Below, piece by piece: positions 1,008 through 16,201 of a stretch of 64,000 nucleotides of DNA. The translations under genes were made by a program, and so were the position numbers. Position 1 is the stretch's first letter; each line of letters opens with the position of its first letter. The stretch comes from Escherichia coli (lineage in GTDB: Bacteria > Pseudomonadota > Gammaproteobacteria > Enterobacterales > Enterobacteriaceae). Below the pieces are notes generated by a model, which was given only the letters and a program-made list of their open reading frames with translations, searched no databases and had not been told where the DNA came from. The stretch lies in NCBI RefSeq assembly GCF_048403405.1, contig NZ_CP183131.1; one strand, written 5' to 3'.

Positions 1008-1085
1008 TGAGCTCTCTCCTTTCGGTTGAGAGGCCACTACCGTCCCAATCGGGAAGTAATGGCCCCGATGGGTTTAAAGTGGTTC

Positions 1086-1388
1086 TCAGTTCACAGCGAT
1101 GCCGTGAGACTGAATGGCATTAGCAAAGCCAGCCATTTGTTCAGGGAAGGTGTAGCGGTTGATGTCCTGGCTGCGAGCCAGATTGACATGCACCTTCTTC
1201 ACCTTCGTTTCGTCAGAGTCGTACTTTTCAAGCGCCAGCTTCTCAGCTTCTTCCGGATCTCGGCCCAGCGAGTAGGCGTAAATCACAGAGGTGAAGCCAA
1301 GTCCTGAGCCGAATGCGTAGACTTGTTTCTCGAAATGGACGTCAGCGAAATAGATGCTGAATCCGGATTTGAGGTTATGTTTTTCCAT
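1086..1388 (-). CDS. hypothetical protein (100 aa)
   Basis: ORF track 1086..1469; start moved to ATG at 1386-1388 with RBS GGAGTG; preceded by conserved leader shared with module at 10066..10186. Confidence 0.5.
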   Translation of the reverse strand: MEKHNLKSGFSIYFADVHFEKQVYAFGSGLGFTSVIYAYSLGRDPEEAEKLALEKYDSDETKVKKVHVNLARSQDINRYTFPEQMAGFANAIQSHGIAVN

Positions 1389-1465
1389 GATGCACTCCAA
1401 ATAGTTTGGGGGCGCACCACGTCCCGAACCGGGCGGATGCACCCGGTTTAGGGTTAGTAGATTGC
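1389..1465 (-). promoter_or_regulatory. partial copy (proximal half) of the conserved 121-bp upstream module
   Basis: GGCGCACCACGTCCCGAACCGGGCGGATGC shared with 10066..10186 and 14901..15021, a few substitutions. Confidence 0.6.
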
Positions 1466-1810
1466 TCAAGCTGTTACGCCAGCCTGAGCCTTTATTGCTT
1501 CAAGCACGATCTCTGCTTCCTTGATAGAACCAGTGCTGTACAGCTTATGCAGCACCCGGCCAAGGTTCACAGAGATCTTTTCTTTCACTTGGAGATACTT
1601 GACATAGAAGTCATACAGTTTCTCCGCCTGCTCAAGGTGGGACATGCTCTCAACGGGAATGGTATTCCCTGGATTGCAGTACCACTTTCCGAGCACCTTT
1701 TGTACAAATCCCTCTTTGTCTCCTACGAACTGATTTGTGCCAAACACCCCACTGGTTGGTGAGCGTTGAATAACAGAAATCGGATTCGCAAAGCTGGCAA
1801 GAGTAGTCAT
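1466..1810 (-). CDS. hypothetical protein (114 aa)
   Basis: ORF track 1466..1867; start moved to internal ATG with RBS GGAGCC. Confidence 0.5.
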   Translation of the reverse strand: MTTLASFANPISVIQRSPTSGVFGTNQFVGDKEGFVQKVLGKWYCNPGNTIPVESMSHLEQAEKLYDFYVKYLQVKEKISVNLGRVLHKLYSTGSIKEAEIVLEAIKAQAGVTA

Positions 1811-1878
1811 AGTTGTGGCTCCATGTTTGTCAGGGAACCACCAGCCCGAGGGGCAGTGATCCCCCAAGGGTTATGTAG

Positions 1879-1950
1879 AATGCTGTTTGTTTGGGGAGGC
1901 CAGCTACCTCACTATTCACTCTCGACAGAGAGCAAAATCTTGCTTTCCGA
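1879..1950 (-). promoter_or_regulatory. degenerate copy (distal half) of the conserved upstream module
   Basis: GAATGCTGTTTGTTTGGGGAGGCCAGCTACCTCAC...CAAAATCTTGCTTTCC matches core of 10129..10190. Confidence 0.5.
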
Positions 1951-1959
1951 GGGGCACAA

Positions 1960-1977
1960 ACTTTCACATGTGAAAGT
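1960..1977. promoter_or_regulatory. 18-bp perfect palindrome ACTTTCACATGTGAAAGT (parS-like)
   Basis: Read directly; one of five copies of core CTTTCACATGTGAAAG. Confidence 0.6.
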
Positions 1978-2001
1978 CGATGCCACTGGGAAAGCAGGGG
2001 G

Positions 2002-2355
2002 TTAACCCCCCGCTTTAACCCGCGCTAAGCGGTTTAGGATAGACTTCACGCCTTCCCTTACTCCAGATGGATCGTAACCTGCTTCATCGCAGCAGACCAC
2101 AAATGAGAATGGATGTACCTCATCGGACATCACCCAAGCCATCGTTTCCTGCTTGATTTCACTTCCAGCTCGACCATCAGCAAGGACTCTAAGGCTATGC
2201 CATAAAAGCCCATCACGTAACTGCCTTACCTCATCATCAGTCCATTCAGGCTTTGGCTCAAATGGAATGACTTCTGCGGTCTTCGGCTCTTCATCCAGGA
2301 AGAAAAGCGGCAGCTCAAGCTGGTTTTCCTTCTGGATCATCTTCACTGCATTCAT
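2002..2355 (-). CDS. hypothetical protein (117 aa)
   Basis: ORF track 2002..2421; start moved to MNAVKM with RBS AAAAGGAGTCACC. Confidence 0.5.
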   Translation of the reverse strand: MNAVKMIQKENQLELPLFFLDEEPKTAEVIPFEPKPEWTDDEVRQLRDGLLWHSLRVLADGRAGSEIKQETMAWVMSDEVHPFSFVVCCDEAGYDPSGVREGVKSILNRLARVKAGG

Positions 2356-2423
2356 GGTGACTCCTTTTACGGGCACCATGCCCCCACAGGGGCATGAAGC
2401 CCCCAGTGGGGTTACAGTCATAG

Positions 2424-2615
2424 TTACTTCACGCCTGCCAGTTGAGAATTGATGTTCTCTTCCAGCCAGCCTTGAAGCGATTCAAGGTCACGTTTGTCTT
2501 CCGTATTGCTGGCTTTACGTGCATCTTCCGACACAGCGCTCAACATGGCGTTAGCCTCAGCAAGTGATTCAACATTGTTCCCAGGGAACACAATCGTTTG
2601 ACTGTGATCTTTCAT
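2424..2615 (-). CDS. hypothetical small protein (63 aa)
   Basis: ORF track 2424..2651; RBS AAGGAGAAGACC before internal ATG. Confidence 0.4.
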   Translation of the reverse strand: MKDHSQTIVFPGNNVESLAEANAMLSAVSEDARKASNTEDKRDLESLQGWLEENINSQLAGVK

Positions 2616-2672
2616 GGTCTTCTCCTTTGAGAATGGAGGACCGTCTCCCATCAGGAAGAGCGGCCCCGTGGG

Positions 2673-2948
2673 TTAAAAGTAAAAATCCTCCAGCTCTTCA
2701 TGGTCAGGCTTTCGCTCAACTGGTCGAAGCAACTCAGCTTCATCAGCGAACTCAAGCTCAGGATGAAAAGCAGGATGAAATCCTCGATGCCAGACTGGAC
2801 GGTCATTATCGAGGTCTAAGTAGCAGTGCCTCCCACTGGCTGGGTGATAGCAGTAAAGCCACTGTCTACCACTAACGGTAAACGGCTTCTCTGCACCTCC
2901 ACATGCCGGTACAAGGTTATCTGCTGCTATATGCGCTACAGCATCCAT
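2673..2948 (-). CDS. hypothetical protein with acidic-aromatic C-terminus (..ELEDFYF)
   Basis: ORF track 2673..2996; start moved to ATG after GAGGA; C-terminal tail read from track. Confidence 0.45.
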   Translation of the reverse strand: MDAVAHIAADNLVPACGGAEKPFTVSGRQWLYCYHPASGRHCYLDLDNDRPVWHRGFHPAFHPELEFADEAELLRPVERKPDHEELEDFYF

Positions 2949-2952
2949 AGGA

Positions 2953-3405
2953 TCAGTCCTCATCTTCGTCATCACGAACACAAAGATCACGAGCAACTAT
3001 TTCCGCAGCTATCAACGCATAATCGTTGCCCTGCCAGAACCACCGCTCCGCCAGCTCATAGGCTTCGCTGGAAGGTTCGCCATAACCATGAGCCACCACG
3101 TAATCGTGGAACACTTCATGATCAAATGCCTTGCCATCAGCTTCCATGAACCAACCGACAGGGCACTCCAGAATGCGATGCCTTACGACATCTCGCTCTG
3201 AATACCCCTCTCTGACGGCTTGCTCCAACATTTCCCGCGACATACCAGGAGGAGTGATGATCTCTATGCTGATCCCGTCACTTCCTGCAAGATTGTCCTC
3301 GTATGGAAGACCGGCAAGTGTAAGGTGATTGCGCTTGCACCAGCCGATGGTCCGAAGTATCCGACTTTTGTCAGACTCCCTGGCCGTGTATCGGTTAAGC
3401 TGCAT
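2953..3405 (-). CDS. hypothetical acidic protein (150 aa, C-terminus DDEDED)
   Basis: ORF track 2953..3462; RBS GGAGGTG before MQLNRY. Confidence 0.5.
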   Translation of the reverse strand: MQLNRYTARESDKSRILRTIGWCKRNHLTLAGLPYEDNLAGSDGISIEIITPPGMSREMLEQAVREGYSERDVVRHRILECPVGWFMEADGKAFDHEVFHDYVVAHGYGEPSSEAYELAERWFWQGNDYALIAAEIVARDLCVRDDEDED

Positions 3406-3784
3406 AGCCACCTCCAGCACACTCCCCATCTTCGATTTCACTTCCGAGCTCGACCATTCCAATCAGGTCAAGCTGGGTCATGTCCGAATCCAGAGAGCAG
3501 TCAATTGCTGACTGAATGATGCCTTTGTGGGCCAAGCCTAAAACGGACTTAATAGTCGAAAGCAGAGACTCGGCTTCGCTCTCGATTTGCTCCAGAATGT
3601 CTTTCCATTCCCAGTGCTCAAACGGTTGCCAAACGACCAGATCCTCAGGCTCGTCTCCCCGTTCGACACACTCAGACAAATACTCATAAGCCTTGCACCA
3701 ATTCTCTTGTTGGCCCAGTTCACTGAGCACTAGAGCGGTAGCATGACCGTATGCGATTTGTTCAACTTTGGTATTGATAGACAT
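3395..3784 (-). CDS. hypothetical highly acidic protein (129 aa)
   Basis: ORF track; strong RBS GAGGAGAAACACT before ATG. Confidence 0.55.
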   Translation of the reverse strand: MSINTKVEQIAYGHATALVLSELGQQENWCKAYEYLSECVERGDEPEDLVVWQPFEHWEWKDILEQIESEAESLLSTIKSVLGLAHKGIIQSAIDCSLDSDMTQLDLIGMVELGSEIEDGECAGGGYAA

Positions 3785-3845
3785 AGTGTTTCTCCTCGTA
3801 ATGGATAGAGGAGCCCCACCCGCAGGAAAGGCTCCTCCGGATGGG

Positions 3846-4076
3846 TTAAATTTCCAAGGTCACATCGGTTTTTGCTTTAGCGCAGCAAACCAACACTTCC
3901 CCTTCTTTGACAAATGCGATGGGCGTCTCGTCATAGGCCACTTGACCTTCGAGTAGACGAACCCGGCACATGCCACAAAAGCCACTGCGACAATGCGTTT
4001 CAACAGTGAGGCCTTTGCTTTCGATTTGCGCCAACAGCACATTGTTGCTGGCTTGAAGTTGTACGTTCATGGTCAC
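3846..4076 (-). CDS. 2Fe-2S ferredoxin-like small protein
   Basis: CRSGFCGMC (C-x4-C-x2-C) plus downstream CC; RBS AAAGGAGCG. Confidence 0.6.
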   Translation of the reverse strand: MTMNVQLQASNNVLLAQIESKGLTVETHCRSGFCGMCRVRLLEGQVAYDETPIAFVKEGEVLVCCAKAKTDVTLEI

Positions 4077-4135
4077 GCTCCTTTGTTGTTGATGAGCGCG
4101 ACCAATCCCCTCCGGGATGTCACGCCCCGGTTGGG

Positions 4136-5020
4136 CTACTCAGCAAGTGCATAGACACCTACCTCGATGCGAATAAAGAACCTGGCATCTTGAAGAACTT
4201 GCCTGACCTTTGCTTGCCAGTGGTTGTTCTCTCGATGCTTTGCGTAGGGTTCAATCTCTTTGTAAATCTGCTCCAGCTTCAACGTTTTCCCCTGTAGGGT
4301 TCGGCGTATTGCAGCTTTCCACGTAGTCGAAACCATATTGGTTGCTCGACGGTGTACGGCAGCAAGAAGACAGAGCGATGAGGCAACGTCGTTACGACGA
4401 AACACCAACAGCTTTTCATGGGCGATACGCACCAGCTTCCCGGAATACTGAGTTCGGTCACTCACACAGTTGTGCTGTGTTTTGATGATCTCATCCACCA
4501 GCTTCCCAGGTGCGATACGTTCCACAAGGCTGGACAGGTTGAAATAATCCCCATCGCGCCTCAGGTTTCCCATGAGGATTCCGTAATGCCCTCCTCGCTC
4601 ACAGGCGTCATGAATATTCATAACGGCCAGCTCAAGGGCTTCAACGAACTCAGGCAAATTCATGCGGCTCATATCCCATTTGTTGGGCTCGCCCCACTGC
4701 TTACCTGAATACTGGATCATGTCCCAGTAAGGAGGGTGCCACCAGATCAGGTGTGCAGGCTCTCCGAGGAACGAAAGGAAGTCATCCCGCAACAGGTTGA
4801 ACCCCTGATGCAAGTCTGTCCCTTTGAAACGGACACCAAGTTCATTGGCAACGTCGATGCTAGAGCCACCCCCAACACTTGGGTCTGCCACCAGCCCGTT
4901 CGGCTTTCTCATGTAAGACTCAATGAAGTCTTTAACGATAAAGCCCGAGCAGTTGCCTCGGTACTTGTTGTTTCCGTAAGGCCCCCTGTTTTCGTAGGAG
5001 CATACTGATGATTTGAACAT
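4136..5020 (-). CDS. DNA amino-methyltransferase (N6A/N4C type, motif I before PPY)
   Basis: ADPSVGGGSS (motif I-like) then WWHPPYWD (motif IV PPY); RBS GGAGGA before MFKSS; ORF track 4136..5059. Confidence 0.6.
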   Translation of the reverse strand: MFKSSVCSYENRGPYGNNKYRGNCSGFIVKDFIESYMRKPNGLVADPSVGGGSSIDVANELGVRFKGTDLHQGFNLLRDDFLSFLGEPAHLIWWHPPYWDMIQYSGKQWGEPNKWDMSRMNLPEFVEALELAVMNIHDACERGGHYGILMGNLRRDGDYFNLSSLVERIAPGKLVDEIIKTQHNCVSDRTQYSGKLVRIAHEKLLVFRRNDVASSLCLLAAVHRRATNMVSTTWKAAIRRTLQGKTLKLEQIYKEIEPYAKHRENNHWQAKVRQVLQDARFFIRIEVGVYALAE

Positions 5021-5093
5021 GGCGTCCTCCATCATAGATGGGGCGCACCATGCTCCCATCAGGGGCCGGTTCGCCCCTGGTTAGGGATTAAGA

Positions 5094-5594
5094 TCAAGCG
5101 TTATCTGCATACCACCAGCTAAGGCGATTGCAATCACGAAAGAAGGTTGCTTCATCAGGAGCCTTCATCATGACCACATCACCTTCGCAGTAGGTGCATA
5201 GCTCAAGCGTTGCTTCATTTTTCCAAAAGGCACTGCACCCCGATTCTTGATACACAACCTCCCATTTGGGATGTCGCAAGTACCGATGGAAGAAATCGAG
5301 AGTGTCACCATAAGGGAAGTTGAAGCGCTCCATCACTGAACCATTTTCTGTCAGTTCAGGTTTAACCTTGCCGGTTTTCAAGCGCTTCTTGATGATGCGC
5401 TGAACCCAACGAAGTCGTGCAAACAGCCGATTGGTGTCTTTCTCGTACCACTGGGGATTACGCTTGCTCCAGTAGAGCTTGGCGAAGATTTCCCCGGACA
5501 AATCCTTCATCTGGTTTTCGTTGAGCTCATCAAGAAAACGTCGAGAAGGTTTGTCGTAGTCAAGAACTGCTTCCAAAGCTGATAGGTTTTTCAT
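5094..5594 (-). CDS. hypothetical protein (166 aa)
   Basis: ORF track; RBS AAGGAGTCCCT. Confidence 0.55.
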   Translation of the reverse strand: MKNLSALEAVLDYDKPSRRFLDELNENQMKDLSGEIFAKLYWSKRNPQWYEKDTNRLFARLRWVQRIIKKRLKTGKVKPELTENGSVMERFNFPYGDTLDFFHRYLRHPKWEVVYQESGCSAFWKNEATLELCTYCEGDVVMMKAPDEATFFRDCNRLSWWYADNA

Positions 5595-5684
5595 AGGGAC
5601 TCCTTATTGCGATTGCGGAGCCCCGTCCCCTCAGGGCTATCGGAGCCCCATAGGGTTAATTAGGGTTAATGGTTGAACGGCGAT

Positions 5685-6224
5685 TTATCGAGGGTTGGTG
5701 AATCGAATGGCTTTACCAACGAAATCGGCCATCAGTCGATTCCCAGTAGAGCTGAAATAGCTCTGCCACTCTTTCCAACCACCAACGGATTCCACCGAGC
5801 TTGGAGACTCGAAGATACCCCAGATACGCATTTCACAACCTCGTTGCAACACTCGGTTTACCTGGTCAACCAAGTATTCCTTGTTCTGCAATGAAGAGAG
5901 GTTGCAAGGCATCTGCATGATCAGCTTTTCAGCTTGCTCGAAGTCGATTTTTTCAATCAACCCCGTGCGGGTATCCACAGAGAATGGAACCACCTGTTGA
6001 CCGTGGTTAGACCACAACCAATGGGTGATATAGATCGGATTAACGCCAACTTCCGCTGGCACCAATACGCTGCCGCAAGACCGCAACAGCCAGACCAGAC
6101 GTAAACCATCGAATCGATCCAGAGACTCCACATCGGTAGTGATGTCATCCTGGTAGATTTCAGGCAGCTTATGTTCGGCGGCGAGAGAGATCATTACGGA
6201 TTTGAGATTGTTCAGATGAGACAT
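5685..6224 (-). CDS. hypothetical protein (179 aa)
   Basis: ORF track; RBS AAGGAGCACAC; first gene downstream of a module copy. Confidence 0.55.
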   Translation of the reverse strand: MSHLNNLKSVMISLAAEHKLPEIYQDDITTDVESLDRFDGLRLVWLLRSCGSVLVPAEVGVNPIYITHWLWSNHGQQVVPFSVDTRTGLIEKIDFEQAEKLIMQMPCNLSSLQNKEYLVDQVNRVLQRGCEMRIWGIFESPSSVESVGGWKEWQSYFSSTGNRLMADFVGKAIRFTNPR

Positions 6225-6290
6225 GTGTGCTCCTTAAAGTAACTTGGGCACACAGAGCCTGTCAGGCGCAGTGCGCCCTTAGGCTGAGGT

Positions 6291-6365
6291 TGAATGCTGT
6301 TTGTTTTTGGCGACCAGCTATCGCACGTTTCGCCCTCAGAGAGGACAAAATTCACTTTCTCAGCA
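6291..6365 (-). promoter_or_regulatory. degenerate copy (distal half) of the conserved upstream module
   Basis: GAATGCTGTTTGTTTTTGGCGACCAGCTATCGCACGTTTCGCC nearly identical to core at 10129..10165. Confidence 0.55.
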
Positions 6366-6488
6366 ACCCTCAATGAAGGCCTCTGAGAAAGTGGGAGGGT
6401 ATTCCCTCCTCACTTTGATTGTTCCACGAGAGCTGTGTGAACAGGAACGCTCAAACTGCCCTTTTCGGGTGCAAAGCTCAAAGACGCA

Positions 6489-6824: not shown

Positions 6825-6833
6825 AGACTCTCC

Positions 6834-8766: not shown

Positions 8767-10044
8767 TTAGAAGAAATAGTCGCCATCGTCGTCAGTTTTA
8801 GGCAGCTCCTGGTTGAGAGGCTCCTCTGTCGGCTCCTCTTGGACAGGCTCTTGCTCTACCGGAGTTTCCTCAGGCAAAACCGGCTCATCCTCAACATCAA
8901 CGCGCTCTTCTCGAACCACATCACCGGCATTGGATTCATCTTCCGATTCACCCTCGCCTCGTTCTGCAAAACTCTTGAAGAAGTTGTCGATGTCTTCATC
9001 CAGGTCAACAGCGTTACCACCGCTGTTAGTCTGTTCTGATTGAACAGATTCAGTACCACCTACCTGTTGCTGCTTGGTTTCGCCACCCTCTGTTGCAGGG
9101 ATAAGCTCACCGGCTTTATCGCTTTTCTGTTCGGCCTTTTCATCTTTAGAACGGTCCCCCATCTGGGCTCCCGAACCGCCAATGTCATTAGCCATGCCCT
9201 CTACAGTAATCGAGCCATTGGCATACTGCTCGATGCGGTCCCTCTCGCTCATGATCAGCACTGCGGCCACGACCTGATAAAAGAAAGGCGCAACGATGTT
9301 TCGGCCATCGGCATGTTGCTCGTATCCCCGGAGGGTTTGGTCGAGCAGCTTGACCAGAGGGTTAAAAGCGCTGTTCAGGAAGCTAAGCCCATCCACCTTG
9401 TCGCGGATGTTACGGAGTGTCTGCCGAGTAGTGACCGCACATTGGTCTCGACCGGCCAAACGTTCCATATAGAACTTATTCGCTTCCTGAACCACTTCGG
9501 AGATGAGATCGTCACCCAAGCGCTCAACCTTGCGGTTAAGGCGTTTGGCGTTGGCCTCATCTTCGTTCACAGGCTGGATCATGAACACCTGGTACTCAAA
9601 GCCAATCCGCTCCTCGACCGTTTCCTTTGGAAGGGCTCCGGCACGGATAGCTCGTTCATACTCAGGGTTCTCCTGACACCATTCATCCACGGCTTTGTTG
9701 TAACCTTTGATGAAATCCTGTTTCAGTTGGTTAAACTGAAAGTTTATGTCATTCAGCTTGTTACAGATTTCATCGGTCTTGCTGACGGGTACGGCAAATC
9801 CGTTCATGAACGGCATACCGAATTTCAGCAGGAGGCGACGAGTTTCTGTTTTCAGGCGATGAAAGCCTTTCAGCTTAGCCGGATCACAGATCTTCTTACT
9901 TCCCAGTTGAGCTACTTTCTCAGGTGGAATTTCACCACCCTCGCCCAGCTTGAGATCAGATGCAGACAAACGGGTTTGTCCACTCCAGATGTCAAAGTCT
10001 ACGTGGATAACACAGAGGCTTTGTAGATGGTTCACTTTAGTCAT
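8767..10044 (-). CDS. hypothetical protein with E/P-rich acidic tail ending DDDGDYFF
   Basis: ORF track 8767..10056; start moved to ATG after GGAGTGCATC. Confidence 0.55.
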   Translation of the reverse strand: MTKVNHLQSLCVIHVDFDIWSGQTRLSASDLKLGEGGEIPPEKVAQLGSKKICDPAKLKGFHRLKTETRRLLLKFGMPFMNGFAVPVSKTDEICNKLNDINFQFNQLKQDFIKGYNKAVDEWCQENPEYERAIRAGALPKETVEERIGFEYQVFMIQPVNEDEANAKRLNRKVERLGDDLISEVVQEANKFYMERLAGRDQCAVTTRQTLRNIRDKVDGLSFLNSAFNPLVKLLDQTLRGYEQHADGRNIVAPFFYQVVAAVLIMSERDRIEQYANGSITVEGMANDIGGSGAQMGDRSKDEKAEQKSDKAGELIPATEGGETKQQQVGGTESVQSEQTNSGGNAVDLDEDIDNFFKSFAERGEGESEDESNAGDVVREERVDVEDEPVLPEETPVEQEPVQEEPTEEPLNQELPKTDDDGDYFF

Positions 10045-10065
10045 GATGCACTCCAAAAAGTTGGG

Positions 10066-10186
10066 GGCGCACCACGTCCCGAACCGGGCGGATGCGCCCG
10101 GTTGGGCTAGTAAATTAACGTTAATTTGCTGTTTGTTTTTGGCGACCAGCTATCGCACTTTTCGCTCTCCGAAGAGAACAAAATCT
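10066..10186 (-). repeat. conserved 121-bp upstream module, copy 1 (identical to 14901..15021)
   Basis: 121 bp identical by direct reading; contains hairpin CCGGGCG-N4-CGCCCGG and palindrome AAATTAACGTTAATTT. Confidence 0.85.
10112..10127. promoter_or_regulatory. 16-bp perfect palindrome AAATTAACGTTAATTT (operator-like) inside module copy 1
   Basis: Read directly. Confidence 0.5.
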
Positions 10187-10243
10187 TGCTTTCCGTTGGA
10201 GACTCCCAGAATCCCCAAGGGAAAGCGGGGGAAAATCCCCCAC

Positions 10244-11254
10244 TCACCAGTAGAACGTCTCTACTTCTTCCGGCAAATCATCAAGAGGAGCAAGCACGTC
10301 CTCATCAACAATGTACCGTGGCTTCACAGAGCCAGTAACCGTTACACGGCACCGCTCTGATGACTTCTCTCTGTACTGGTCAACATCCTCAGGCTTCACG
10401 CCTGACGCCTTATCAGCCAACAGCTTTTTGTAGTCTACCCGGCCAGCCGCTTTGTATCTCGTTACCATCACACCGCAGTAGTCGGCATGGAAGTATTCCC
10501 CCATGAGGGACTTCATGGTGTCGAGATGAGGCTTTTGCCTTTCTTGAAGCTCAGACAGTCGCTGTTTCAGCTCCTGAATCTCAGCATCATAGAGGCGGTA
10601 TTCCTCAGCAGCAGCAATCCAACGGTTGACCTCTTCACCTTGCGGTATGTACAGGTCTCTCTCTGGATCTTTGTCGGGCTCCTTCTTGTCTACTACCTGT
10701 TGCCAGAACTTTTTAGCCTCGGCCAAGATTTCTTGAATCATGGCTTCGTCTCGGAGTATTGGAAACTCCTGAATCTGACCTTCAAAGTAGAAGACTAACC
10801 AGCCTTGCTTGGCCCCCGTTACCAGGAGCTGGTGTTGCACCTGCGGGTAATAAAGCTGGTATGCCTTGCTGTTTGCTTTCTCAGCACAAACATCTTCCCA
10901 GACAGTCGCACTCGGGCTTTTCAGCTCGACGGGCTCCCCGTTATCTCTCAGGCCATCCAGGGAGGCCCTCATGAGCGGGTATTGAACCGATTCGACACAG
11001 GCGGGGAGCAGCATGTCATCATACTTCTCCTCGAAAGCGCGTCTTGCAGCATCTTCGTTTTCTATCCCCCGGCGAACCAGCGGATTAAGACTCAGATCGA
11101 CTTCACGCGCATACCCAGTCTTCTCGGCCCACAGTCTCCATCGTGTTTTGTACGGAGACCGATTGAGCAGGATAGCGGCGTCAGTGGCTGTTACACCTTG
11201 ACGCCGCCAATCAAGCCAATCTTCCTCTCGTTGCGATAGGTTGACTATTTTCAT
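10244..11254 (-). CDS. exo: alkaline exonuclease (lambda Exo / YqaJ-like) of ssb-bet-exo module; C-terminus ..EEVETFYW
   Basis: Size and gene order after bet as in SXT/IncC elements; RBS TGGAGAGAGG. Confidence 0.75.
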   Translation of the reverse strand: MKIVNLSQREEDWLDWRRQGVTATDAAILLNRSPYKTRWRLWAEKTGYAREVDLSLNPLVRRGIENEDAARRAFEEKYDDMLLPACVESVQYPLMRASLDGLRDNGEPVELKSPSATVWEDVCAEKANSKAYQLYYPQVQHQLLVTGAKQGWLVFYFEGQIQEFPILRDEAMIQEILAEAKKFWQQVVDKKEPDKDPERDLYIPQGEEVNRWIAAAEEYRLYDAEIQELKQRLSELQERQKPHLDTMKSLMGEYFHADYCGVMVTRYKAAGRVDYKKLLADKASGVKPEDVDQYREKSSERCRVTVTGSVKPRYIVDEDVLAPLDDLPEEVETFYW

Positions 11255-11316
11255 GGACCTCTCTCCAATGGTTAGGAGGGAGATCTCCCCCAGCGGGGGA
11301 GTCCCCCCCGTTGGGG

Positions 11317-12306
11317 TTAGTAGTAACTGCCTTCCGCGCCCTCCTCTTCTGTAACAGGGATCATGTCCTCGTCACTCAAAGGCGGCATTTCTTCGGCACC
11401 AGGTTCAGCATTTGCAGAACCACCAGCGGCGGACTCTTGCTCGTGCGCTTCCTGGTAGTCAGGTTTCGGAGGCTCCATTTGATCCATCTCCTTGTCACGA
11501 AGGAATTGAGTCGCATATTGCAGTTCCGAACCTTCATACCGTCCCTTCACATACTCATGCGCCGCAGACCATGCGTTTTCAGCAATGGCGCGATTTGCGA
11601 GTTTGGTTAGGATCGGGTCAAGCTCTTTGTGCTCAATAGCCAAAGGCTCTTGGCTTTGAACTTGAGATGGTGAAGGGAGATTGGCAATAGCCGGGTTAAT
11701 GGCCGATGCCTGCTCCATTTCACGGATGCGTTCAGCTTCATCCTGGTCATAAATACCAGAGAAACCAAATGCGACACGAGAACACTGGATCAGCGACTTG
11801 TGCCGGAGTTGACGCTTGGTGTGCGTTTGCCAGGGGCCATCAACAGTGTAAGCACCATTGCGACCTTGACCCTGAAACGGTTCACGGTACACCTCATCAA
11901 TGAACTCCTTGATGCGGATAGGGCGAGATCTGTCCTTACGGTAAATCACGCATTCAATCCACTCAGGGCAGTCAACTTTCGCCCCCTGCATTCTGACCAT
12001 CTTGTCCGAATACACGAACTCGACGCCATCATACTGGGGATGCTCGTTGATGATGCGGCTCCAACCATCAACACCTACTACCGGAATGATCCCATTTTGC
12101 TTGTCAGGAAACGCATAGATTTCCCGAGTGAAAGGGTTCAAACCGTACTGTTCAGCCACGATCAGGAGCGTCATCATCTGCTCATCGGTCGGGGCACTTC
12201 CATCTCGCTGCTTGAATGCGGTCGCCTTCAAAGTTTCATAGAACTTTCGGGTGTCCACGCCAAACCGGCTTGCGATACGGGTTACAAGAGATTTGTTATC
12301 AGACAT
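11317..12306 (-). CDS. bet: single-strand annealing protein (Bet/RecT-type); C-terminus ..EEEGAEGSYY
   Basis: ORF track 11317..12348; start moved to MSDNK after RBS GGAGA; position between ssb and exo. Confidence 0.75.
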   Translation of the reverse strand: MSDNKSLVTRIASRFGVDTRKFYETLKATAFKQRDGSAPTDEQMMTLLIVAEQYGLNPFTREIYAFPDKQNGIIPVVGVDGWSRIINEHPQYDGVEFVYSDKMVRMQGAKVDCPEWIECVIYRKDRSRPIRIKEFIDEVYREPFQGQGRNGAYTVDGPWQTHTKRQLRHKSLIQCSRVAFGFSGIYDQDEAERIREMEQASAINPAIANLPSPSQVQSQEPLAIEHKELDPILTKLANRAIAENAWSAAHEYVKGRYEGSELQYATQFLRDKEMDQMEPPKPDYQEAHEQESAAGGSANAEPGAEEMPPLSDEDMIPVTEEEGAEGSYY

Positions 12307-12400
12307 GGTGTTTCTCCAATTCACGAATGAACGGTTTGAGGACACCATGACCCCCTCGGGGCATGAGTGCCCCCGTGGGGTTTAGTAAGAGTTGGCGGTG

Positions 12401-12928
12401 TTACCCGCCAGCCAAGTGGTGCAGCCGCATGAACGGGATGTCATCATCCCAGCCATCAGGAGCGGGACCATAGCCTCCGCCCATACCACCTTGCGGTGCT
12501 GATTGCTGCACAGGAGCAGATTGCGTACCGGCTCCTGTACGTTGCCCTTTTTGGGGCGCTGCACGTTGAGAGTTGTCCTGAGGTGCATTTCCACGACCAC
12601 CAAGCATCTGCATTTCAACGCAGTGTACTTCGGTGGTGTAGCGCTCGATTTGTTGGCTGTCAGTCCACTTCCGGGTGCGGTTGCTCCCTTCGAGATAGAC
12701 TTGGGAGCCCTTTTTCAGGTACTCACCAGCGACTTCTGCCAAACGACCTTTAAGCACAATACGGTGCCACTCAGTATGCTCTCTTTGCTCGCCAGACTGC
12801 TTATCGCGCCACGTATCCGTTGTTGCAACGTTGAAGTTGGCAACGGCAGTTCCGCTTGGCATGTAGCGAATTTCCGGGTCAGAACCGAGATTACCGACCA
12901 GAATTACTTTGTTGACGCCTTTAGACAT
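12401..12928 (-). CDS. ssb: single-stranded DNA-binding protein with 9-aa extension after DDDIPF
   Basis: N-terminus [15 protein letters not shown].., Gly-rich linker, DDDIPF then MRLHHLAGG before stop (verified by manual translation). Confidence 0.9.
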
Positions 12929-12991
12929 CATGACCTCCAAGTTATTTGGAGAGGGCCAACGCCCCTTTCGGGGAGCAAGCCCCCGTAAGGG

Positions 12992-13900
12992 TTAAAAAAA
13001 GTGATCCTCTTGTTCGGCGTCGATCTCTGCCAGGCGAATCAGCTCAGATACAAGGCCAAGCCTTTCTGCATCTGCTCTTACTTCGTCGTAGCTGAAACCA
13101 AACCGTTCAATGAGGGGTTTTAGTGAATCAAAACGCTCGTAGTCGAAGGTATCACCCTGTTCATCACAGAATGCCACCAGCGGCTTCTCTACGTTTGAAA
13201 AGTCATCCGCGAAACGCTGTTGCAGGTAAACCAACATCAGCAGGGGTTTGTGACCATGTTCCGGGCGGAGTTCACCAGCGCCTTCCAGCGTAGCTGGATG
13301 GATAGTGTTTTCGCCTAGTCCAGTGCTAACCCCAAGCTCATAACCGCTGTCAGTACGCATCAGCACACTGGGTAGCAAGTCATTTGAGCCTTCGCTCCGA
13401 GCAACCTCAAAGCCGATTAAACCGGCTCCTTTGGCAAAAACCCCAGCAACAAAACCTTTGAAGAGGTTTATGTCACCTGGAGGTAACTCAGAGGGCGGAG
13501 ATAACAGCCAGTTGAGAGATCCCAAGCTGGCTGTTTGTCCGGCTGAAACATTCCCCCCTTCCAGCACCGTCTGTGTCTCTGCGTTTACCAGCACCTCATC
13601 CAGAAAGGTGTACCCCTGGCTGAGAAACTGTGACACATACTGGCTTTCTTTGTCCTTGTAGGACATTGGGATCGTGTCTGGGCCGTTAGCTTCAAAAGGT
13701 CCTTCGAGCTTTGTCTCAGACCAATTTTCAGCTTTCCCATCAGTGACGGTTCGGCGTAGCTCGACCATCGTGAATTGGCCTGGCTCCGAGGAGCTGGGCT
13801 CCCGGAGCAACTTGTAGCCAATGAAGACTTCTATTGTGGTTTCGTCATTGCCCCACTCTTTAGCAGTGTAACGACGGCACAAACAGTCATTTTTCTTCAT
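12992..13900 (-). CDS. hypothetical protein (302 aa) ending ..AEQEDHFF
   Basis: ORF track; RBS AAGGGG; 10-nt gap after the AAA+ gene. Confidence 0.55.
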   Translation of the reverse strand: MKKNDCLCRRYTAKEWGNDETTIEVFIGYKLLREPSSSEPGQFTMVELRRTVTDGKAENWSETKLEGPFEANGPDTIPMSYKDKESQYVSQFLSQGYTFLDEVLVNAETQTVLEGGNVSAGQTASLGSLNWLLSPPSELPPGDINLFKGFVAGVFAKGAGLIGFEVARSEGSNDLLPSVLMRTDSGYELGVSTGLGENTIHPATLEGAGELRPEHGHKPLLMLVYLQQRFADDFSNVEKPLVAFCDEQGDTFDYERFDSLKPLIERFGFSYDEVRADAERLGLVSELIRLAEIDAEQEDHFF

Positions 13901-13910
13901 GCGTCACCCC

Positions 13911-14879
13911 TTAGCGCCATTGGTCCCCGAACACATCCTTCGCAACACGCAGGATGGCTTCACGCTCCTCTTTGGCCGCACGGATAAGCAGAGCTTGATC
14001 CAGGGCGTATTCAAGAGCATTTGGGGCACCACGGAACGCTAGAGACAGTTTCGCCCAACGCACCAACGTCCGAGTGGACATGGTGACGCTGATCTGACCA
14101 TCTTCACCGTTTTCGCCAAGAAACAGTTTGCGGACCTGATTAGCAATCCGAACCATTCCCTTCCGCACATTTTCCGGAAGTTTCGGAGTAACACGGCCAA
14201 GAATGCTGAGTTCAGCTTCCTCATCCGCATACCCTACTTTGGTGAAACGATAGCGATCCATAGCTGCGAGGTTCTGCATCATCACCCCCTGGTACAAACC
14301 AGAAGCATCACCGGACCCCGTAGAGTTACCAGTAACGACCACACGAAACATCGGGTGCGGCTTGATGATTTCCCCGCCATTCTGAGCGATCACAAGGGGA
14401 CGCCCTTCAAGGACATCGTTGAGACCAGCCAGCTCGGCAGGGTCGGCCAAATCCACCTCGTTGATGAGGAGCAGATGACCTTCACGCATAGCGACTGCCA
14501 GAGGTCCATACATGAACTTCATGACAGGTGGTTGACCAGGCTTTTCCGCGACCAGAGCGTGATGTCCAATCAGATCTGTCAGCTCCATCCGCCCGTGGGC
14601 AGTGATTTGCTGAACAGGCCAGTTGAGACGACCAGCGATCTCGGTGATACCTGAGGTTTTGCCAGACCCGGTAGGGCCGGTTACGAACAATGCGTCACCG
14701 CCAGGCTCTTTGAGATAGGCCAAGACCTCTCGCAGAAACTCTTTGCGGAAAACGTAGTTGGTATCAGTGGCAGGGATGAAAGGGTTTGAACCGTCAGCGT
14801 AGCCGATGGCCGTTACCTTCTCCGGAATGCTGGGCATACCGAAAACCTTGCTTACTGAGAATTGAGAGTATTGAGACAT
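13911..14879 (-). CDS. AAA+ ATPase (CobS/MoxR-like)
   Basis: Walker A GPTGSGKT, Walker B LLLINEVD; RBS TAGGAGCGCACCT. Confidence 0.8.
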   Translation of the reverse strand: MSQYSQFSVSKVFGMPSIPEKVTAIGYADGSNPFIPATDTNYVFRKEFLREVLAYLKEPGGDALFVTGPTGSGKTSGITEIAGRLNWPVQQITAHGRMELTDLIGHHALVAEKPGQPPVMKFMYGPLAVAMREGHLLLINEVDLADPAELAGLNDVLEGRPLVIAQNGGEIIKPHPMFRVVVTGNSTGSGDASGLYQGVMMQNLAAMDRYRFTKVGYADEEAELSILGRVTPKLPENVRKGMVRIANQVRKLFLGENGEDGQISVTMSTRTLVRWAKLSLAFRGAPNALEYALDQALLIRAAKEEREAILRVAKDVFGDQWR

Positions 14880-14900
14880 AGGTGCGCTCCTATTGTGACA

Positions 14901-15021
14901 GGCGCACCACGTCCCGAACCGGGCGGATGCGCCCGGTTGGGCTAGTAAATTAACGTTAATTTGCTGTTTGTTTTTGGCGACCAGCTATCGCACTTTTCGC
15001 TCTCCGAAGAGAACAAAATCT
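14901..15021 (-). repeat. conserved 121-bp upstream module, copy 2
   Basis: Identical to 10066..10186. Confidence 0.85.
14947..14962. promoter_or_regulatory. palindrome AAATTAACGTTAATTT inside module copy 2
   Basis: Read directly. Confidence 0.5.
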
Positions 15022-15098
15022 GCTTACTGATGGTATTCACCATGAGTAAGAAGACTTTTAAGGAGCGAGGAGAGTAGCCTCTCCTGGAGGCCACTCCC

Positions 15099-15284
15099 TC
15101 AATGGACGAACATCACCACATCGTCGTTTTGACCAATGACCCCGGTTTCTTTGGCCCACTTCACTGCTTCACTGTGCGCCTGGTAGGAGCTGGAATACAG
15201 TTTCGGATCAAATTTCACCTCGCGTCCATCAGCCAGATAGATGATGCCTGCGTGATCGTCGTAAACATGAAGATTCTGTTGCAT
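15099..15284 (-). CDS. hypothetical small protein (61 aa)
   Basis: ORF track 15099..15350; RBS AGGGGGA before internal ATG. Confidence 0.4.
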   Translation of the reverse strand: MQQNLHVYDDHAGIIYLADGREVKFDPKLYSSSYQAHSEAVKWAKETGVIGQNDDVVMFVH

Positions 15285-15400
15285 TCGACATTCCCCCTGT
15301 AGCTTGTCGTCAAAGCCAACTGACACCAGAAGACTTTGAGGACAAGCCACAGAGGCTTGACCAGAAAGAGAGGGGTTGCCCCCTCCCTTTGCGTTGACTA

Positions 15401-15493
15401 TCAGCAGTAACCGAACGATTCAGCGATTCTCACGAAAGGACGAGAGATTGCCCAACCAGTAGGGATACACAAAGCGATGATAGCGATTTCCAT
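15401..15493 (-). CDS. small hydrophobic peptide (30 aa, MEIAIIALCIPTGWAISRPFVRIAESFGYC)
   Basis: Not in ORF track (under 60 aa); found manually; RBS TAGGAGCAACATC identical in style to the neighbouring gene. Confidence 0.35.
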   Translation of the reverse strand: MEIAIIALCIPTGWAISRPFVRIAESFGYC

Positions 15494-15507
15494 GATGTTG
15501 CTCCTAA

Positions 15508-15587: not shown

Positions 15588-15908
15588 TTACCAAACAAGT
15601 TCCTTGCCCTTACGAAGGTAAGTCGGGATTTCGAGATAATCCCAGTCAGGTTCTTGTTTAGCGACTTCTTGAACTTGAGTTACCTCAGGTTCAACGACTG
15701 CTTTGGCTTGTTCAGCCTTGGCAGCACGTTCTTTGATGACGGCCTGTACAGACCGCATTGCAGGAACTGCGAATTTGTTCCAAAGGAACAAACCGATACG
15801 CTGGAACACTTTAGCGAGAACGATGAAGGAAAAAGCAAATGCCTTCGCGCCTACGTACAGTGCGCCCAGAGATGCAAGCAGAACTACAATGAAAGTGATG
15901 ATGTGCAT
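15588..15908 (-). CDS. small membrane protein (106 aa, N-terminal TM helix)
   Basis: Hydrophobic N-terminus; RBS TAGGAGCAACACC. Confidence 0.5.
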   Translation of the reverse strand: MHIITFIVVLLASLGALYVGAKAFAFSFIVLAKVFQRIGLFLWNKFAVPAMRSVQAVIKERAAKAEQAKAVVEPEVTQVQEVAKQEPDWDYLEIPTYLRKGKELVW

Positions 15909-15923
15909 GGTGTTGCTCCTATG

Positions 15924-15966
15924 TAAAAAAACAGGGGCAACACCCGAAAACCGGGAGAAGCCCCCG
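15924..15966 (-). terminator. terminator-like nested hairpin with U7 in the leader of the membrane protein gene
   Basis: Minus-sense GGGGC..CCCGG-UUUU-CGGG..GCCCC UGUUUUUUU. Confidence 0.5.
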
Positions 15967-16003
15967 GCTTGGGGTTAAGTAATGCCATACGGCATAAGAC
16001 TAG

Positions 16004-16050
16004 ATGCTGTTTGTTTTCGGAGACCAGCTATCTCACCTATAGCCGCAGAG
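16004..16050 (-). promoter_or_regulatory. degenerate copy (distal half) of the conserved upstream module
   Basis: AGATGCTGTTTGTTTTCGGAGACCAGCTATCTCAC. Confidence 0.45.
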
Positions 16051-16104
16051 CGACTAAGATGATTCAAATATAGCTCACCTTTGCTAAACAGAAAACGCTG
16101 TAAC

Positions 16105-16120
16105 TGTCCATTTTGGGCAC
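16105..16120 (+). promoter_or_regulatory. FlhDC-family (SetCD/AcaCD-like) activator box TGTCCATTTTGGGCAC
   Basis: One of six related GCCC/GTCC-N5-GGGC boxes in promoter regions; ~80 bp upstream of the 16202 start. Confidence 0.5.
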
Positions 16121-16201
16121 TTCGAGAGGTCAGGTTACAGATTGACCGCATTTATCCTTTCCAGTGCGTTTATCTGTACCTCAAATTTAGGAGTATCTCT
16201 A

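Follow-up and report, generated by a model that had tools for sequence, protein, structure and literature searches.

Two stretches of non-coding DNA in the window (the whole 64-kb stretch analysed here, an IncC plasmid backbone) were found to be 100% identical over 121 bp, at 10066-10186 and 14901-15021, as a preliminary description had claimed, which raises the question of what this module does and why its two copies are the same. Both copies stopped 22 nt short of a leftward start codon; these were the CAT at 10042-10044 of a DUF3150 gene (vcrx094) and the CAT at 14877-14879 of an AAA ATPase gene (vcrx089), the first gene of the ssb-bet-exo sub-operon. We consider the repeats to be paralogous copies of a modular structured mRNA leader that probably gates translation, with a probability of about 0.6. 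The leader precedes many accessory operons in IncC resistance plasmids and in related conjugative elements of other proteobacteria, and it is previously undescribed as far as we found in the literature. Read 5' to 3', the element consisted of HP1, a 4-bp hairpin with the loop UAGCUGG (HP2), the tail AAACAAACAGCA, P3 and P4, arranged in the two copies as follows.

10066..10186, minus strand: 121-bp repeat, vcrx094 copy, upstream of the DUF3150 gene
14901..15021, minus strand: 121-bp repeat, vcrx089 copy, upstream of the AAA ATPase gene
10188..10241, minus strand: upstream part of the vcrx094 copy, with HP0 GGGGGAUUUUCCCCC at 10227-10241, then GCUUUCC at 10220-10226
10159..10183, minus strand: HP1 of the vcrx094 copy, UUUUGUUCUC-UUCG-GAGAGCGAAAA (14994-15018 in the vcrx089 copy)
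10142..10156, minus strand: HP2 of the vcrx094 copy, a covarying 4-bp stem GCGA/UCGC with the 7-nt loop UAGCUGG (14977-14991 in the vcrx089 copy)
10127..10141, minus strand: A-rich tail CAAAAACAAACAGCA of the vcrx094 copy (14962-14976 in the vcrx089 copy)
10112..10127, minus strand: 16-bp palindrome AAATTAACGTTAATTT of the vcrx094 copy (14947-14962 in the vcrx089 copy)
10078..10106, minus strand: P3 of the vcrx094 copy, CCC-AA-CCGGGCG-CAUC-CGCCCGG-UUC-GGG (14913-14941 in the vcrx089 copy)
10043..10075, minus strand: P4 of the vcrx094 copy, anti-Shine-Dalgarno arm GUGGUGCGCC (10066-10075) paired with GGAGUGCAUCAU; Shine-Dalgarno GGAG at 10051-10054
14880..14910, minus strand: P4 of the vcrx089 copy, identical 5' arm (14901-14910) paired with AGGAGCGCACC; Shine-Dalgarno at 14887-14891

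The hairpins singled out in the preliminary description were all present, as was its core. CCGGGCG-N4-CGCCCGG corresponded to P3, a GC hairpin with a CCC/GGG closing base, and UCUC-UUCG-GAGA to HP1, which was found in every copy with a sequence that differed from copy to copy. The palindrome AAATTAACGTTAATTT, which would fold into an AU-rich hairpin separating the tail from P3, was optional; only some paralogues had it, and those without it carried other hairpins or nothing at that place, arguing against the shared repressor-controlled promoter suggested earlier. HP2 would form stem 1 of an H-type pseudoknot, and its loop was invariant among the sampled copies; the CAGC of the tail could pair with the GCUG of the loop as stem 2. 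The vcrx094 repeat took in HP1, the pseudoknot and P3 with the optional hairpin between them, plus the 5' arm of P4, at which the 121-bp identity ended. Further upstream, HP0 and GCUUUCC resembled a weak terminator closing the exo operon, where no strict intrinsic terminator was found in the window, and GCUUUCC was able to pair with GGAAAGC (10188-10194) in a helix, P0.

In all, the window contained five members of the module's family, whose cores lay at 1881, 6296, 10128, 14963 and 16006 (0 matches expected by chance). Besides the 121-bp pair, the copies were these.

1808..2000, minus strand: family copy between cistrons, tail 1881-1895, HP2 (GAGG/CCUC) 1896-1910, palindrome CTTTCACATGTGAAAG in the upstream part at 1961-1976
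6222..6413, minus strand: family copy in the vcrx098 5' UTR, tail 6295-6309, HP2 6310-24
15906..16061, minus strand: family copy in the vcrx087 5' UTR, tail 16005-16019, HP2 16020-34

Seven copies and a degenerate eighth were present in pVCR94deltaX, and every IncC copy was in the sense orientation, with a start codon downstream. The IncC accessory block begins at vcrx087 and extends to about vcrx12x; ssb, bet and exo are encoded there along with methylases, a primase and other functions. P3-P4, which makes up the module's 3' half, recurred 13 times in the window, always on one strand and in the sense direction (0.59 in shuffles), and stand-alone cassettes were located as follows.

11252..11318, minus strand: P3-P4 cassette running up to the exo start codon
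12304..12382, minus strand: P3-P4 cassette preceding bet, matching in position the reported SXT 'translational attenuator'
12929..12993, minus strand: P3-P4 cassette, AACCC..GGGG..CCCC..GGGG with anti-SD/SD, running up to the ssb start codon
15491..15555, minus strand: P3-P4 cassette before a small unannotated ORF between vcrx087 and vcrx088
1006..5657, minus strand: six further P3-P4 cassettes with AACCC starts at 5657, 4137, 2674, 2413, 1455 and 1074, each extending 58-67 nt from AACCC to an annotated start codon

Twenty P3-P4 cassettes were counted in pVCR94deltaX, all within 65.6-92.8 kb; a start codon followed 56-76 nt downstream in 19 (window copies were checked against RefSeq annotation), the one without a start codon at this spacing being the cassette at 90641. 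The five-copy family, the 13 recurrences of the 3' half and the lineage limit of the 121-bp identity (see below) went beyond the preliminary description.

Perfect Watson-Crick pairing at all four stem positions was observed in 120 of 157 genome-scan matches, compared with 0.4% expected, the flanks being unconstrained by the search pattern. At least 20 distinct stem sequences occurred among the matches, and those with perfect covarying stems came from Gamma-, Beta- and Alphaproteobacteria. All four stem pairs varied on both sides in alignment A2, in which 100% of cells were paired and 0 of 500 shuffles matched this result. Invariance of the loop and tail was partly built into the search pattern, and the relaxed scan covered the already collected loci only; two independent compensatory double changes between loop and tail, along with G-U intermediates, support the putative pseudoknot. 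In 43 of 55 copies the sense strand had the more stable fold of the two strands (p = 1.5e-6), with a mean z-score of -3.6, and both 121-bp copies in the window had a predicted fold of -57 kcal/mol (z about -4.5). Conserved secondary structure with covariation on the transcribed sense strand, the hallmark of a cis-regulatory mRNA leader, is supported by these results.

The start codon was located 60-120 nt past the tail in 74 of 92 downstream genes. The median pairing probability of the Shine-Dalgarno sequence reached 0.97, versus 0.73 in controls (p = 2e-8), a moderate effect because the controls were also fairly structured. Arms paired better with their own partners than with partners taken from other copies, for P3 (p = 5e-8) as well as P4 (p = 2e-6). 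The folding models are consistent with P4 as an expression platform that would occlude the Shine-Dalgarno sequence and the AUG, and Betaproteobacteria have terminator versions. A search of the window and 17 related loci against Rfam 15 families gave no match at E <= 1, and no conserved alternative pairing of the mutually exclusive aptamer/expression-platform kind was seen by eye.

The perfect identity had been attributed to gene conversion or strong selection, and lineage comparison favored the former. In CP012668, as in this window, the vcrx089 and vcrx094 copies were equal over 121 bp. The vcrx089 copy of pVCR94deltaX instead had 111 bp in common with that of vcrx120, and no more than 50 bp with that of vcrx094. 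Exact 121-bp identity was limited to some IncC lineages, and it appears to be a recent, lineage-specific gene-conversion tract between two paralogues. It is not a mark of special constraint on the two window copies. The same gene junctions kept orthologous copies in IncC, pAQU-type plasmids, Photorhabdus, Vibrio and marine elements, with the core conserved and the flanks diverged. By its distribution the element is evidently ancient and widespread, not a local duplication absent from related elements.

No convincing sigma-70 -35/-10 had been noticed in the modules, and a scan of window positions 1-17000 agreed, giving 3 promoter-like sites versus 11.7 in shuffles and none in the modules. With a matrix of 15 published ChIP-exo AcaCD boxes, real boxes scored 22.7-34.3 bits. 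The module was rejected as an AcaCD box, since its best match scored 5.6 bits, the second half-site was absent and the sole GCCC-N4-GGGC was wrongly spaced. Genuine boxes sat upstream of the element and none inside it.

16096..16124, minus strand: genuine AcaCD box at the divergent acaB/vcrx087 promoters, 34.3 bits
6448-6476: second genuine AcaCD box, 27.9 bits, with the vcrx098 family copy downstream of it

The module was also missing from the published 17 ChIP-exo peaks and 18 promoters, for which reads with MAPQ <10 had been discarded; the published start-site table contains only starts adjoining AcaCD boxes, and owing to the same read filter repeat-internal starts could be missed. The AcaCD-dependent start of vcrx087 determined by 5'-RACE (65081-65083) is 3-5 nt before HP1 (about 65086) of the vcrx087 copy, indicating that this copy is within a transcript, and the expected vcrx098 start is upstream of the vcrx098 family copy. 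RNA-seq units without and with AcaCD were respectively 3 and 3463 for vcrx089, and 5 and 2868 for vcrx094. According to a review (PMC4542580), Pvcrx087 drives bet and exo. Operon starts were predicted by Rockhopper at both vcrx089 and vcrx094, for which an internal promoter would equally account. We infer that the two 121-bp copies are transcribed, because the genes behind them are expressed in an AcaCD-dependent manner without an AcaCD box; for the element in general, AcaCD-dependent genes and a mapped start just 5' of promoter-proximal copies point to transcription.

A structured 5' leader had been among the candidates of the preliminary description, and it is the one favored by the covariation, the pseudoknot, the sense folding bias, the Shine-Dalgarno sequestration and the position downstream of mapped starts. 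The anatomy, strand, covariation, distribution and absence of promoter signals were computed. As a leader, the element would work on the sense strand, at the 5' end of a message or as a spacer between operons and not as a DNA promoter, with each copy carried within transcripts of the IncC accessory block that depend on AcaCD. The RNA would fold in the order HP1, H-type pseudoknot, optional hairpin, P3 and P4, and P4, aided by P3, would shut the ribosome-binding site, so that the first cistron would by default be translated at an attenuated level. The pseudoknot, heading each sub-operon, probably docks a conserved trans-acting partner, for which the candidates include an RNA-binding protein encoded by the element, a 30S/S1 standby complex and a small ligand. 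Once docked, the partner would couple translation or RNA fate across the block to one signal.

An RNA-level role other than translation is possible, with perhaps one chance in several. The single-stranded A/U- or A-rich segments could be cleaved at a processing or stability junction, with HP1 and the pseudoknot as the 3' cap and P3-P4 as the 5' cap; the element could be a nut/put-like signal for processive antitermination, letting RNA polymerase pass the leaky terminators that separate sub-operons; or HP1 and the pseudoknot could be released together to act as a small RNA decoy. Ahead of 53 of 123 copies stood a GC hairpin and U-rich tail resembling a terminator, compared with 9% of random positions, and the pseudoknot occupies operon heads as nut and put sites do. 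Stand-alone, apparently non-coding versions were found in Betaproteobacteria, showing that the pseudoknot unit can serve a non-translational role; versions in this class came either with a TTGACA-N17-TATCGT promoter of their own plus a terminator, or with a terminator ~13 nt past the tail, upstream of an integrase gene. However, neither antitermination nor processing needs a constant Shine-Dalgarno-sequestering hairpin or a fixed distance to the AUG, HP0 lacks a strict terminator in the window, and an N-like or NusG-like gene was not found. Less probable still is a double-stranded DNA promoter without sigma-70 hexamers that starts the vcrx089 and vcrx094 operons upon activation by an AcaCD-dependent factor, one candidate being the RHH activator AcaB. 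The AcaCD dependence without a box and the Rockhopper starts would suit it, and acaB homologues were the commonest IncC protein at betaproteobacterial element loci (13 of 40). Yet covarying stems, G-U pairs, the loop-tail pseudoknot and the sense-strand bias all indicate RNA, the start is mapped or predicted upstream of promoter-proximal copies, the -10 region with its candidate positions is not conserved between copies, and nothing resembling the module occurs upstream of acr1, the reported site of AcaB action. The shared repressor-controlled promoter suggested earlier was not supported, given the lack of sigma-70 hexamers and of an AcaCD box, and downstream genes that are silent without AcaCD.

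A function of single-stranded DNA in the recipient, either as an Frpo-like promoter or as an ssi priming signal for the plasmid toprim primase, seems very improbable, and the preliminary suggestion of this kind was disfavored. Several hairpins, a single orientation for all copies and establishment-type neighbors (ssb, methylases, bet/exo, primase) are compatible with it, and a hairpin with a single-stranded tail is similar to the sites that primases recognize. The transferred template strand is where Frpo-type promoters form, however, whereas here the coding strand folds better; the G-U pairs of P4 would become C-A mismatches on the template strand, none of the stems contains a -35/-10, and pairing of the Shine-Dalgarno sequence and AUG would be purposeless in DNA. 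The pVCR94deltaX copies, at 65-92 kb of 120.6 kb, are moreover confined to one 28-kb block on the opposite side of the plasmid from oriT, which adjoins mobI at position 1. It is hardly credible that the copies are a functionless selfish or neutral intergenic repeat of the REP/MITE type spread by recombination. Multiple intergenic copies and gene conversion between them would be expected of such a repeat, but orthologous copies are held at the same junctions with a conserved core and diverged flanks, and target duplications are absent. A REP/MITE-type repeat would need either orientation, independence of gene starts and terminal inverted repeats; the copies are without terminal repeats, all sense and at a fixed spacing from the start codon.

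The structured leader can be compared with several known systems. The Frpo/ssi modules of the F and ColIb leading regions are likewise repeated, hairpin-rich and non-coding, and they too precede ssb and establishment-type genes. Frpo itself is long, an imperfect hairpin of a few hundred nucleotides with -35 and -10 on the transferred template strand; the element differs in its short, separate coding-strand hairpins, without hexamers and in copies not adjoining oriT. Lambda nut and HK022 put are also short structured RNAs heading mobile-element operons with terminator-like hairpins nearby, but the element has no boxA/boxB or put similarity and occurs in at least 7 copies per mobile element, each tied to a start codon. 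In small H-type pseudoknot aptamers such as the preQ1-I riboswitch, too, an A-rich tail follows a short hairpin and pairs through its 3' end with the loop, in a unit of ~30 nt with highly conserved loop and tail, upstream of terminators or Shine-Dalgarno-sequestering helices. However, Rfam PreQ1 had no match at E <= 1, the preQ1-I pocket requires a loop longer than the 7 nt seen here, the expression platform is 60-100 nt away without pseudoknot overlap, and the gene content hints at no ligand. The tisB standby site, the rpoS leader and phage Mu Com-mom resemble the element in a ribosome-binding site locked in a hairpin, access to which needs upstream structure and a single-stranded A-rich stretch or a protein-binding hairpin. 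These are single-gene cases without sequence similarity, whereas the element is a multi-copy cassette across a block of operons, conserved between bacterial classes.

Two comparisons concern the same plasmid or gene block. AcaCD promoters share the plasmid, the regulon and the AcaCD dependence, and the module core GCCAAAAACAAACAG is superficially like half of the box GCCCNDWWWGGGC; their hallmark is a 28-29-bp box with GCCCNDWWWGGGC centered about -50 from the start site, which the module does not have. Such promoters are further marked by an AcaCD ChIP-exo peak and by transcription that starts about 35 nt past the box. A bet translational attenuator was reported for SXT in 2013 and said to be present in IncA/C plasmids, according to the summary in PMC4542580. 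It lies in the same gene block and, as summarized there, blocks translation of highly transcribed genes, and the window has at 12304-12382 a P3-type hairpin that would occlude the ribosome-binding region upstream of bet; its position suggests that the two may be structurally equivalent. The attenuator is described in that summary for one gene only, whereas the cassette stood before 13 cistrons in the window and in 20 places in IncC, and at operon heads it was joined to an undescribed upstream pseudoknot module.

Sequence comparison bore out the preliminary description of two identical 121-bp repeats, and every sub-feature listed there was found in both copies. Each repeat ends 22 nt ahead of a leftward start codon. 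One precedes vcrx089, an AAA ATPase gene that is the first of a run with ssb, bet and exo, and the other precedes vcrx094, which encodes a DUF3150 protein and has a gene for a VWA-domain protein after it (vcrx numbers denote genes of the 120.6-kb reference IncC plasmid pVCR94deltaX). A repeat search recovered a 31-bp core at four window positions and a looser pattern added a fifth; all five share one strand, against a chance expectation of 0 matches. By BLAST, the window was IncC (IncA/C2) backbone, matching 866 plasmid records, approximately 700 of them at ≥99% identity. When the whole plasmid sequence was compared, the window minus strand corresponded to the plus strand of pVCR94deltaX, which carries seven sense-strand copies, at 65.1, 66.2, 71.0, 75.4, 79.8, 83.6 and 89.9 kb, and a degenerate eighth in the vcrx114 5' UTR.

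Repeats and cores in the window
10066-10186, minus strand: 121-bp repeat upstream of vcrx094
14901-15021, minus strand: identical 121-bp repeat upstream of vcrx089
6296, 10128 and 14963: exact copies of the 31-bp core
16006: core with three mismatches
1883: core found with the looser pattern

The exact 121-bp run between the vcrx089 and vcrx094 copies, which extends from 34 nt before the HP2 loop to the 5' arm of P4 (parts defined below), was found in this window and in the IncC plasmid CP012668. In pVCR94deltaX, the vcrx089 copy shared 111 bp with the vcrx120 copy and merely 50 bp with the vcrx094 copy. Gene conversion between paralogues leaves mosaic, lineage-specific tracts of this kind as its signature, which supports the earlier suggestion that conversion caused the identity; the underlying element family is ancient.

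Sense-strand alignment, of the five window copies first and of many further copies after, gave the modular plan of the element, a proposed family of structured mRNA leaders.

Parts of the element
HP0: GC hairpin plus 3' UUUCC(C), found in 53 of 123 copies versus 9% at random positions
P0: the U-rich tail of HP0 can pair with a downstream GGAAAG
HP1: hairpin, its sequence differing between copies
HP2: 4-bp stem with the loop UAGCUGG
Tail: C-N2-AAAYAAWCAGCA
Optional hairpin: the palindrome AAATTAACGTTAATTT of the preliminary description, confined to some paralogues
P3: GC hairpin closed by AACCC...GGG
P4: anti-Shine-Dalgarno arm paired with the Shine-Dalgarno sequence and onward through the AUG

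Both window copies were folded by ViennaRNA into exactly five hairpins, those of this plan (-57.2 and -57.4 kcal/mol; z-scores -4.56 and -4.42). With a plain MAFFT alignment as input, RNAalifold returned no more than HP2 and the CCC/GGG base. The mean z-score against shuffles was -3.6 over 55 non-redundant copies, in 43 of which the sense RNA was stabler than the antisense (p = 1.5e-6), with base composition balanced. P4 of the vcrx094 copy contains G-U pairs that would become C-A mismatches on the opposite strand. This strand preference and these G-U pairs argue against a hairpin promoter on the transferred template strand; a single-strand promoter was one candidate of the preliminary description.

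The element was associated with translation starts. Downstream of 92 of 124 unique copies lay a start codon with a Shine-Dalgarno sequence ahead of it, 60-120 nt past the tail in 74 of the 92. The Shine-Dalgarno sequence was predicted to be paired with a median probability of 0.97, versus 0.73 at other gene starts of the same loci (p = 2e-8). In a self-versus-cross duplex test, P4 arms bound their own partners at -10.9 kcal/mol and those of other copies at -8.4 kcal/mol (p = 2e-6); the values for P3 arms were -17.4 and -13.9 kcal/mol (p = 5e-8). A gapless extension test of P4, weakened by bulges and mis-anchoring, gave 0.50 versus a null of 0.44. The downstream genes belong to many unrelated families, indicating that the element is tied to a gene block rather than to a single gene.

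A small repeat family from the window repeat search prompted a search for the 3' half of the module, the P3-P4 cassette (AACCC-hairpin-GGG plus the anti-SD/SD hairpin). Thirteen sense-strand cassettes and one on the opposite strand were found in the first 16 kb of the window, compared with 0.59 in shuffles. pVCR94deltaX contained 20, all within 65,588-92,776 and none elsewhere on the plasmid. A start codon followed 56-76 nt past AACCC in 19 of the 20, the exception being the cassette at 90641, and RefSeq annotation agreed for the window copies checked. The cistrons preceded by cassettes include ssb, bet and exo. Because the cassette also stands alone before cistrons, the 3' half of the module belongs to a family of probable cistron-level attenuators; the 5' half (HP1 plus pseudoknot) is an addition at operon heads. 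The cassette at window 1386-1455, before the gene starting at 1388, lacks the pseudoknot half and is approximately 98% identical to P3-P4 of the vcrx094 copy (10042-10108), a further sign of exchange among paralogous cassettes. Another stands in front of a short unannotated ORF (about 30 codons, MEIAIIALCIPTGWAISRPFVRIAESFGYC; window 15400-15493, minus strand) between vcrx087 and vcrx088, which may encode a hydrophobic micropeptide.

One genome per species was scanned with the pattern TAGCTGG-N7-AAAYAAWCAGYA, and at least 120 stretches matched. Among the matches listed, isolate hosts included Photorhabdus, Vibrio, Shewanella, Marinobacter, Aliagarivorans and Pseudovibrio, alongside many assemblies of Rhodocyclaceae, Sulfuritalea, Azonexaceae, Nitrosomonadales and Lautropia, and copy density reached eight per 44 kb. 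Some betaproteobacterial matches lay on contigs of 0.5-3.5 Mb. One contig binned as Rhodospirillaceae was really an IncC/pAQU-like element, with protein identity of 60-86%. Homologues of AcaB (DUF1845) were the commonest IncC protein beside the betaproteobacterial element (13 of 40 loci, L012-L087), so the arrangement of acaB with a divergent leader appears older than IncC; SSB (8 loci) and toprim primase (6 loci) came next.

With the pattern leaving four bases free on either side of the loop, four Watson-Crick stem pairs were present in 120 of the 157 matches listed versus 0.4% expected, and at least 20 different stem sequences occurred among them. In alignment A2, both-side changes were seen at every stem pair and 100% of cells were paired, which 0 of 500 shuffles matched. 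The apparent invariance of loop and tail is partly due to the search pattern itself. The loop GCUG is complementary to the tail CAGC, and this pairing was checked in a relaxed scan of the loci already collected. One bona fide copy had the loop UAGCUAG with the tail UAGCA and another UAACUGA with CAGUA, two independent compensatory double changes at different pairs. Among copies with the usual loop, five had G-U intermediates and one was mismatched. These sequence comparisons, in which informative cases are few, support loop-tail pairing; the predicted fold is an H-type pseudoknot, compact and with an A-rich third loop of 10 nt. The degenerate copy before vcrx114 (pVCR94deltaX ~86,740-86,830, outside the window) reads GG-UAGCUGG-CC, tail AAAACAGCA, then a P3-P4 cassette.

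The possibility that the module is itself a promoter was weighed against published data. A weight matrix for AcaCD, the transcriptional activator of the plasmid, was built from published ChIP-exo boxes taken by coordinate (Carraro 2014, Table S3). Genuine boxes scored 22.7-34.3 bits, including 16096-16124, 6448-6476 and 20718-20746 in the window; the module reached 5.6 bits at best, with the wrong half-site spacing. A sigma-70 scan gave zero sites within any module. RNA-seq values rose from 3 to 3463 for vcrx089 and from 5 to 2868 for vcrx094 when AcaCD was present, the genes downstream of the modules being silent without it and strongly expressed with it (Carraro 2014). The missing sigma-70 sites, the low AcaCD score and this AcaCD dependence of the downstream genes speak against the promoter candidate of the preliminary description. 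A later study placed 18 AcaCD promoters on the plasmid, and vcrx089 and vcrx094 were not among them; according to a review from the same group (PMC4542580), AcaCD-dependent Pvcrx087 drives bet and exo. A caveat is that the published ChIP-exo dropped reads with MAPQ <10; the vcrx094 copy in pVCR94deltaX was nevertheless largely mappable because its exact runs common to other copies reach at most 50 bp. By eye, the core fitted neither sigma-54, ECF or FliA-type promoters nor an RfaH ops-like site in spacing and key bases. An AcaB operator was discarded, module-like sequence being absent upstream of acr1.

Mapped or expected starts and promoters precede the element, indicating that it is transcribed. 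5'-RACE placed the vcrx087 start at 65081-65083, and the copy there begins 3-5 nt farther downstream; the vcrx098 copy lies downstream of the start predicted from its own AcaCD box. HP1 is preceded by an AcaCD-like box and a -10 element in loci of Aliagarivorans and its like, and by a TTGACA-N17-TATCGT promoter in several betaproteobacterial loci. As the vcrx114 promoter, the third AcaCD promoter of the block, has the element in its 5' UTR, all three AcaCD promoters of the block lead into it. The element thus occupies the transcript 5' end or lies between sub-operons; transcription through the two 121-bp copies rests on published expression data together with position. The sole strong intrinsic terminator of the block (window 6840-6869, minus strand; 13-bp stem then UUAUUU) lies directly after vcrx095, a VWA-domain gene, within a stretch annotated as a single operon. 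Anatomy, strand, covariation, distribution and the absence of promoter signals were all computed here.

A separate, unrelated repeat, the perfect 16-bp palindrome CTTTCACATGTGAAAG, occurred five times in the window versus 0.01 expected and 12 times in pVCR94deltaX.

Exact copies of CTTTCACATGTGAAAG in the window
1961-1976
17356-17371
38463-38478
56343-56358
59758-59773

Several copies lie approximately 35-60 bp upstream of AcaCD boxes and one upstream of acr1. Loci of pAQU-type, Photorhabdus, Shewanella and Marinobacter elements carry the palindrome as well, and it resembles an operator at which a DNA-binding protein of the plasmid would act.

We infer translational gating by the element and the existence of a partner. 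The cis-acting mRNA leader would hold the ribosome-binding site closed via P4, with P3 in support, and at operon heads a conserved putative partner would dock on the pseudoknot. More specifically, the pseudoknot (UAGCUGG loop plus AAACAAACAGCA tail) could be the recognition site of a dedicated partner that switches the establishment/recombination block of IncC/pAQU-type elements post-transcriptionally, a tentative reading to which we give a probability of roughly 0.3. In the main rival reading, the pseudoknot unit may also work through termination or as free RNA. Betaproteobacterial variants favor it: in some, a terminator ahead of an integrase gene comes after HP1 and the pseudoknot, and in others these two form the start of a ~250-nt non-coding RNA that has a promoter and a terminator of its own. 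The former (L029, L033, L034, L085 and L102) have the pseudoknot stem UUCC/GGAA and a clean terminator, CGCGCAGCAGUUGGCGCG-UUUUU, ~13 nt past the tail; a tyrosine-integrase-like gene (Pfam PF12835) lies ~350 nt downstream of the unit, an arrangement like that of an attenuator or small RNA. In the stand-alone version (L020, L026, L032 and L041; Rhodocyclaceae, Sulfuritalea, Lautropia), a near-consensus TTGACA-N17-TATCGT promoter leads into HP1 and the pseudoknot, after which come another ~190 nt of structured sequence and the terminator; this version looks like a ~250-nt RNA with no ORF or Rfam match. NCBIfam and Pfam neighbors of the betaproteobacterial non-coding versions were only ParA, integrase and efflux genes, giving no candidate partner gene, and no arginine-rich or zinc-finger motif was found in the small proteins of vcrx087 and vcrx088.

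If partner recognition holds, the partner could be a protein encoded by the element, either RNA-binding or an endoribonuclease, or else a small-molecule signal. It would switch all of the establishment and recombination block in IncC, pAQU and related conjugative elements on or off after transcription, in a regulatory layer beneath AcaCD/SetCD. The free small RNA form of the pseudoknot unit in some elements would then titrate the partner, and the family would be a new regulatory RNA class common to conjugative elements of Gamma-, Beta- and Alphaproteobacteria. Among plasmids, the IncC group is a major carrier of multidrug resistance. Its regulation has so far been mapped almost wholly as transcription by AcaCD, AcaB, Acr1 and Acr2. 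The element points to a second, post-transcriptional layer over approximately 20 cistrons, including ssb, bet/exo, methylases and primase. Bet/exo reportedly aid survival of these elements after CRISPR-Cas double-strand breaks during conjugation (Roy et al. 2020, as cited in PMC11541004), and the other genes of the block are of the kind typical of plasmid establishment regions.

E-value searches of Rfam 15 returned no family at any copy (window and 17 further loci), and literature searches on the sequences and related terms found no published description of the element; Hegyi et al. describe a recombination hot spot at another locus. Compact, highly conserved and without an Rfam family, the pseudoknot is a possible marker of this conjugative-element superfamily in genomes and metagenomes. 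Its nearest published counterpart is one attenuator, that of bet: a 'strong translational attenuator' upstream of bet was shown in SXT and is 'also present' but untested in IncA/C plasmids (PMC4542580), and the cassette before bet occupies the position given in that review. The element is best read as a structured cis-regulatory leader, a known kind of RNA of which it would be a new form, with a real chance of something new in the pseudoknot and its putative partner.
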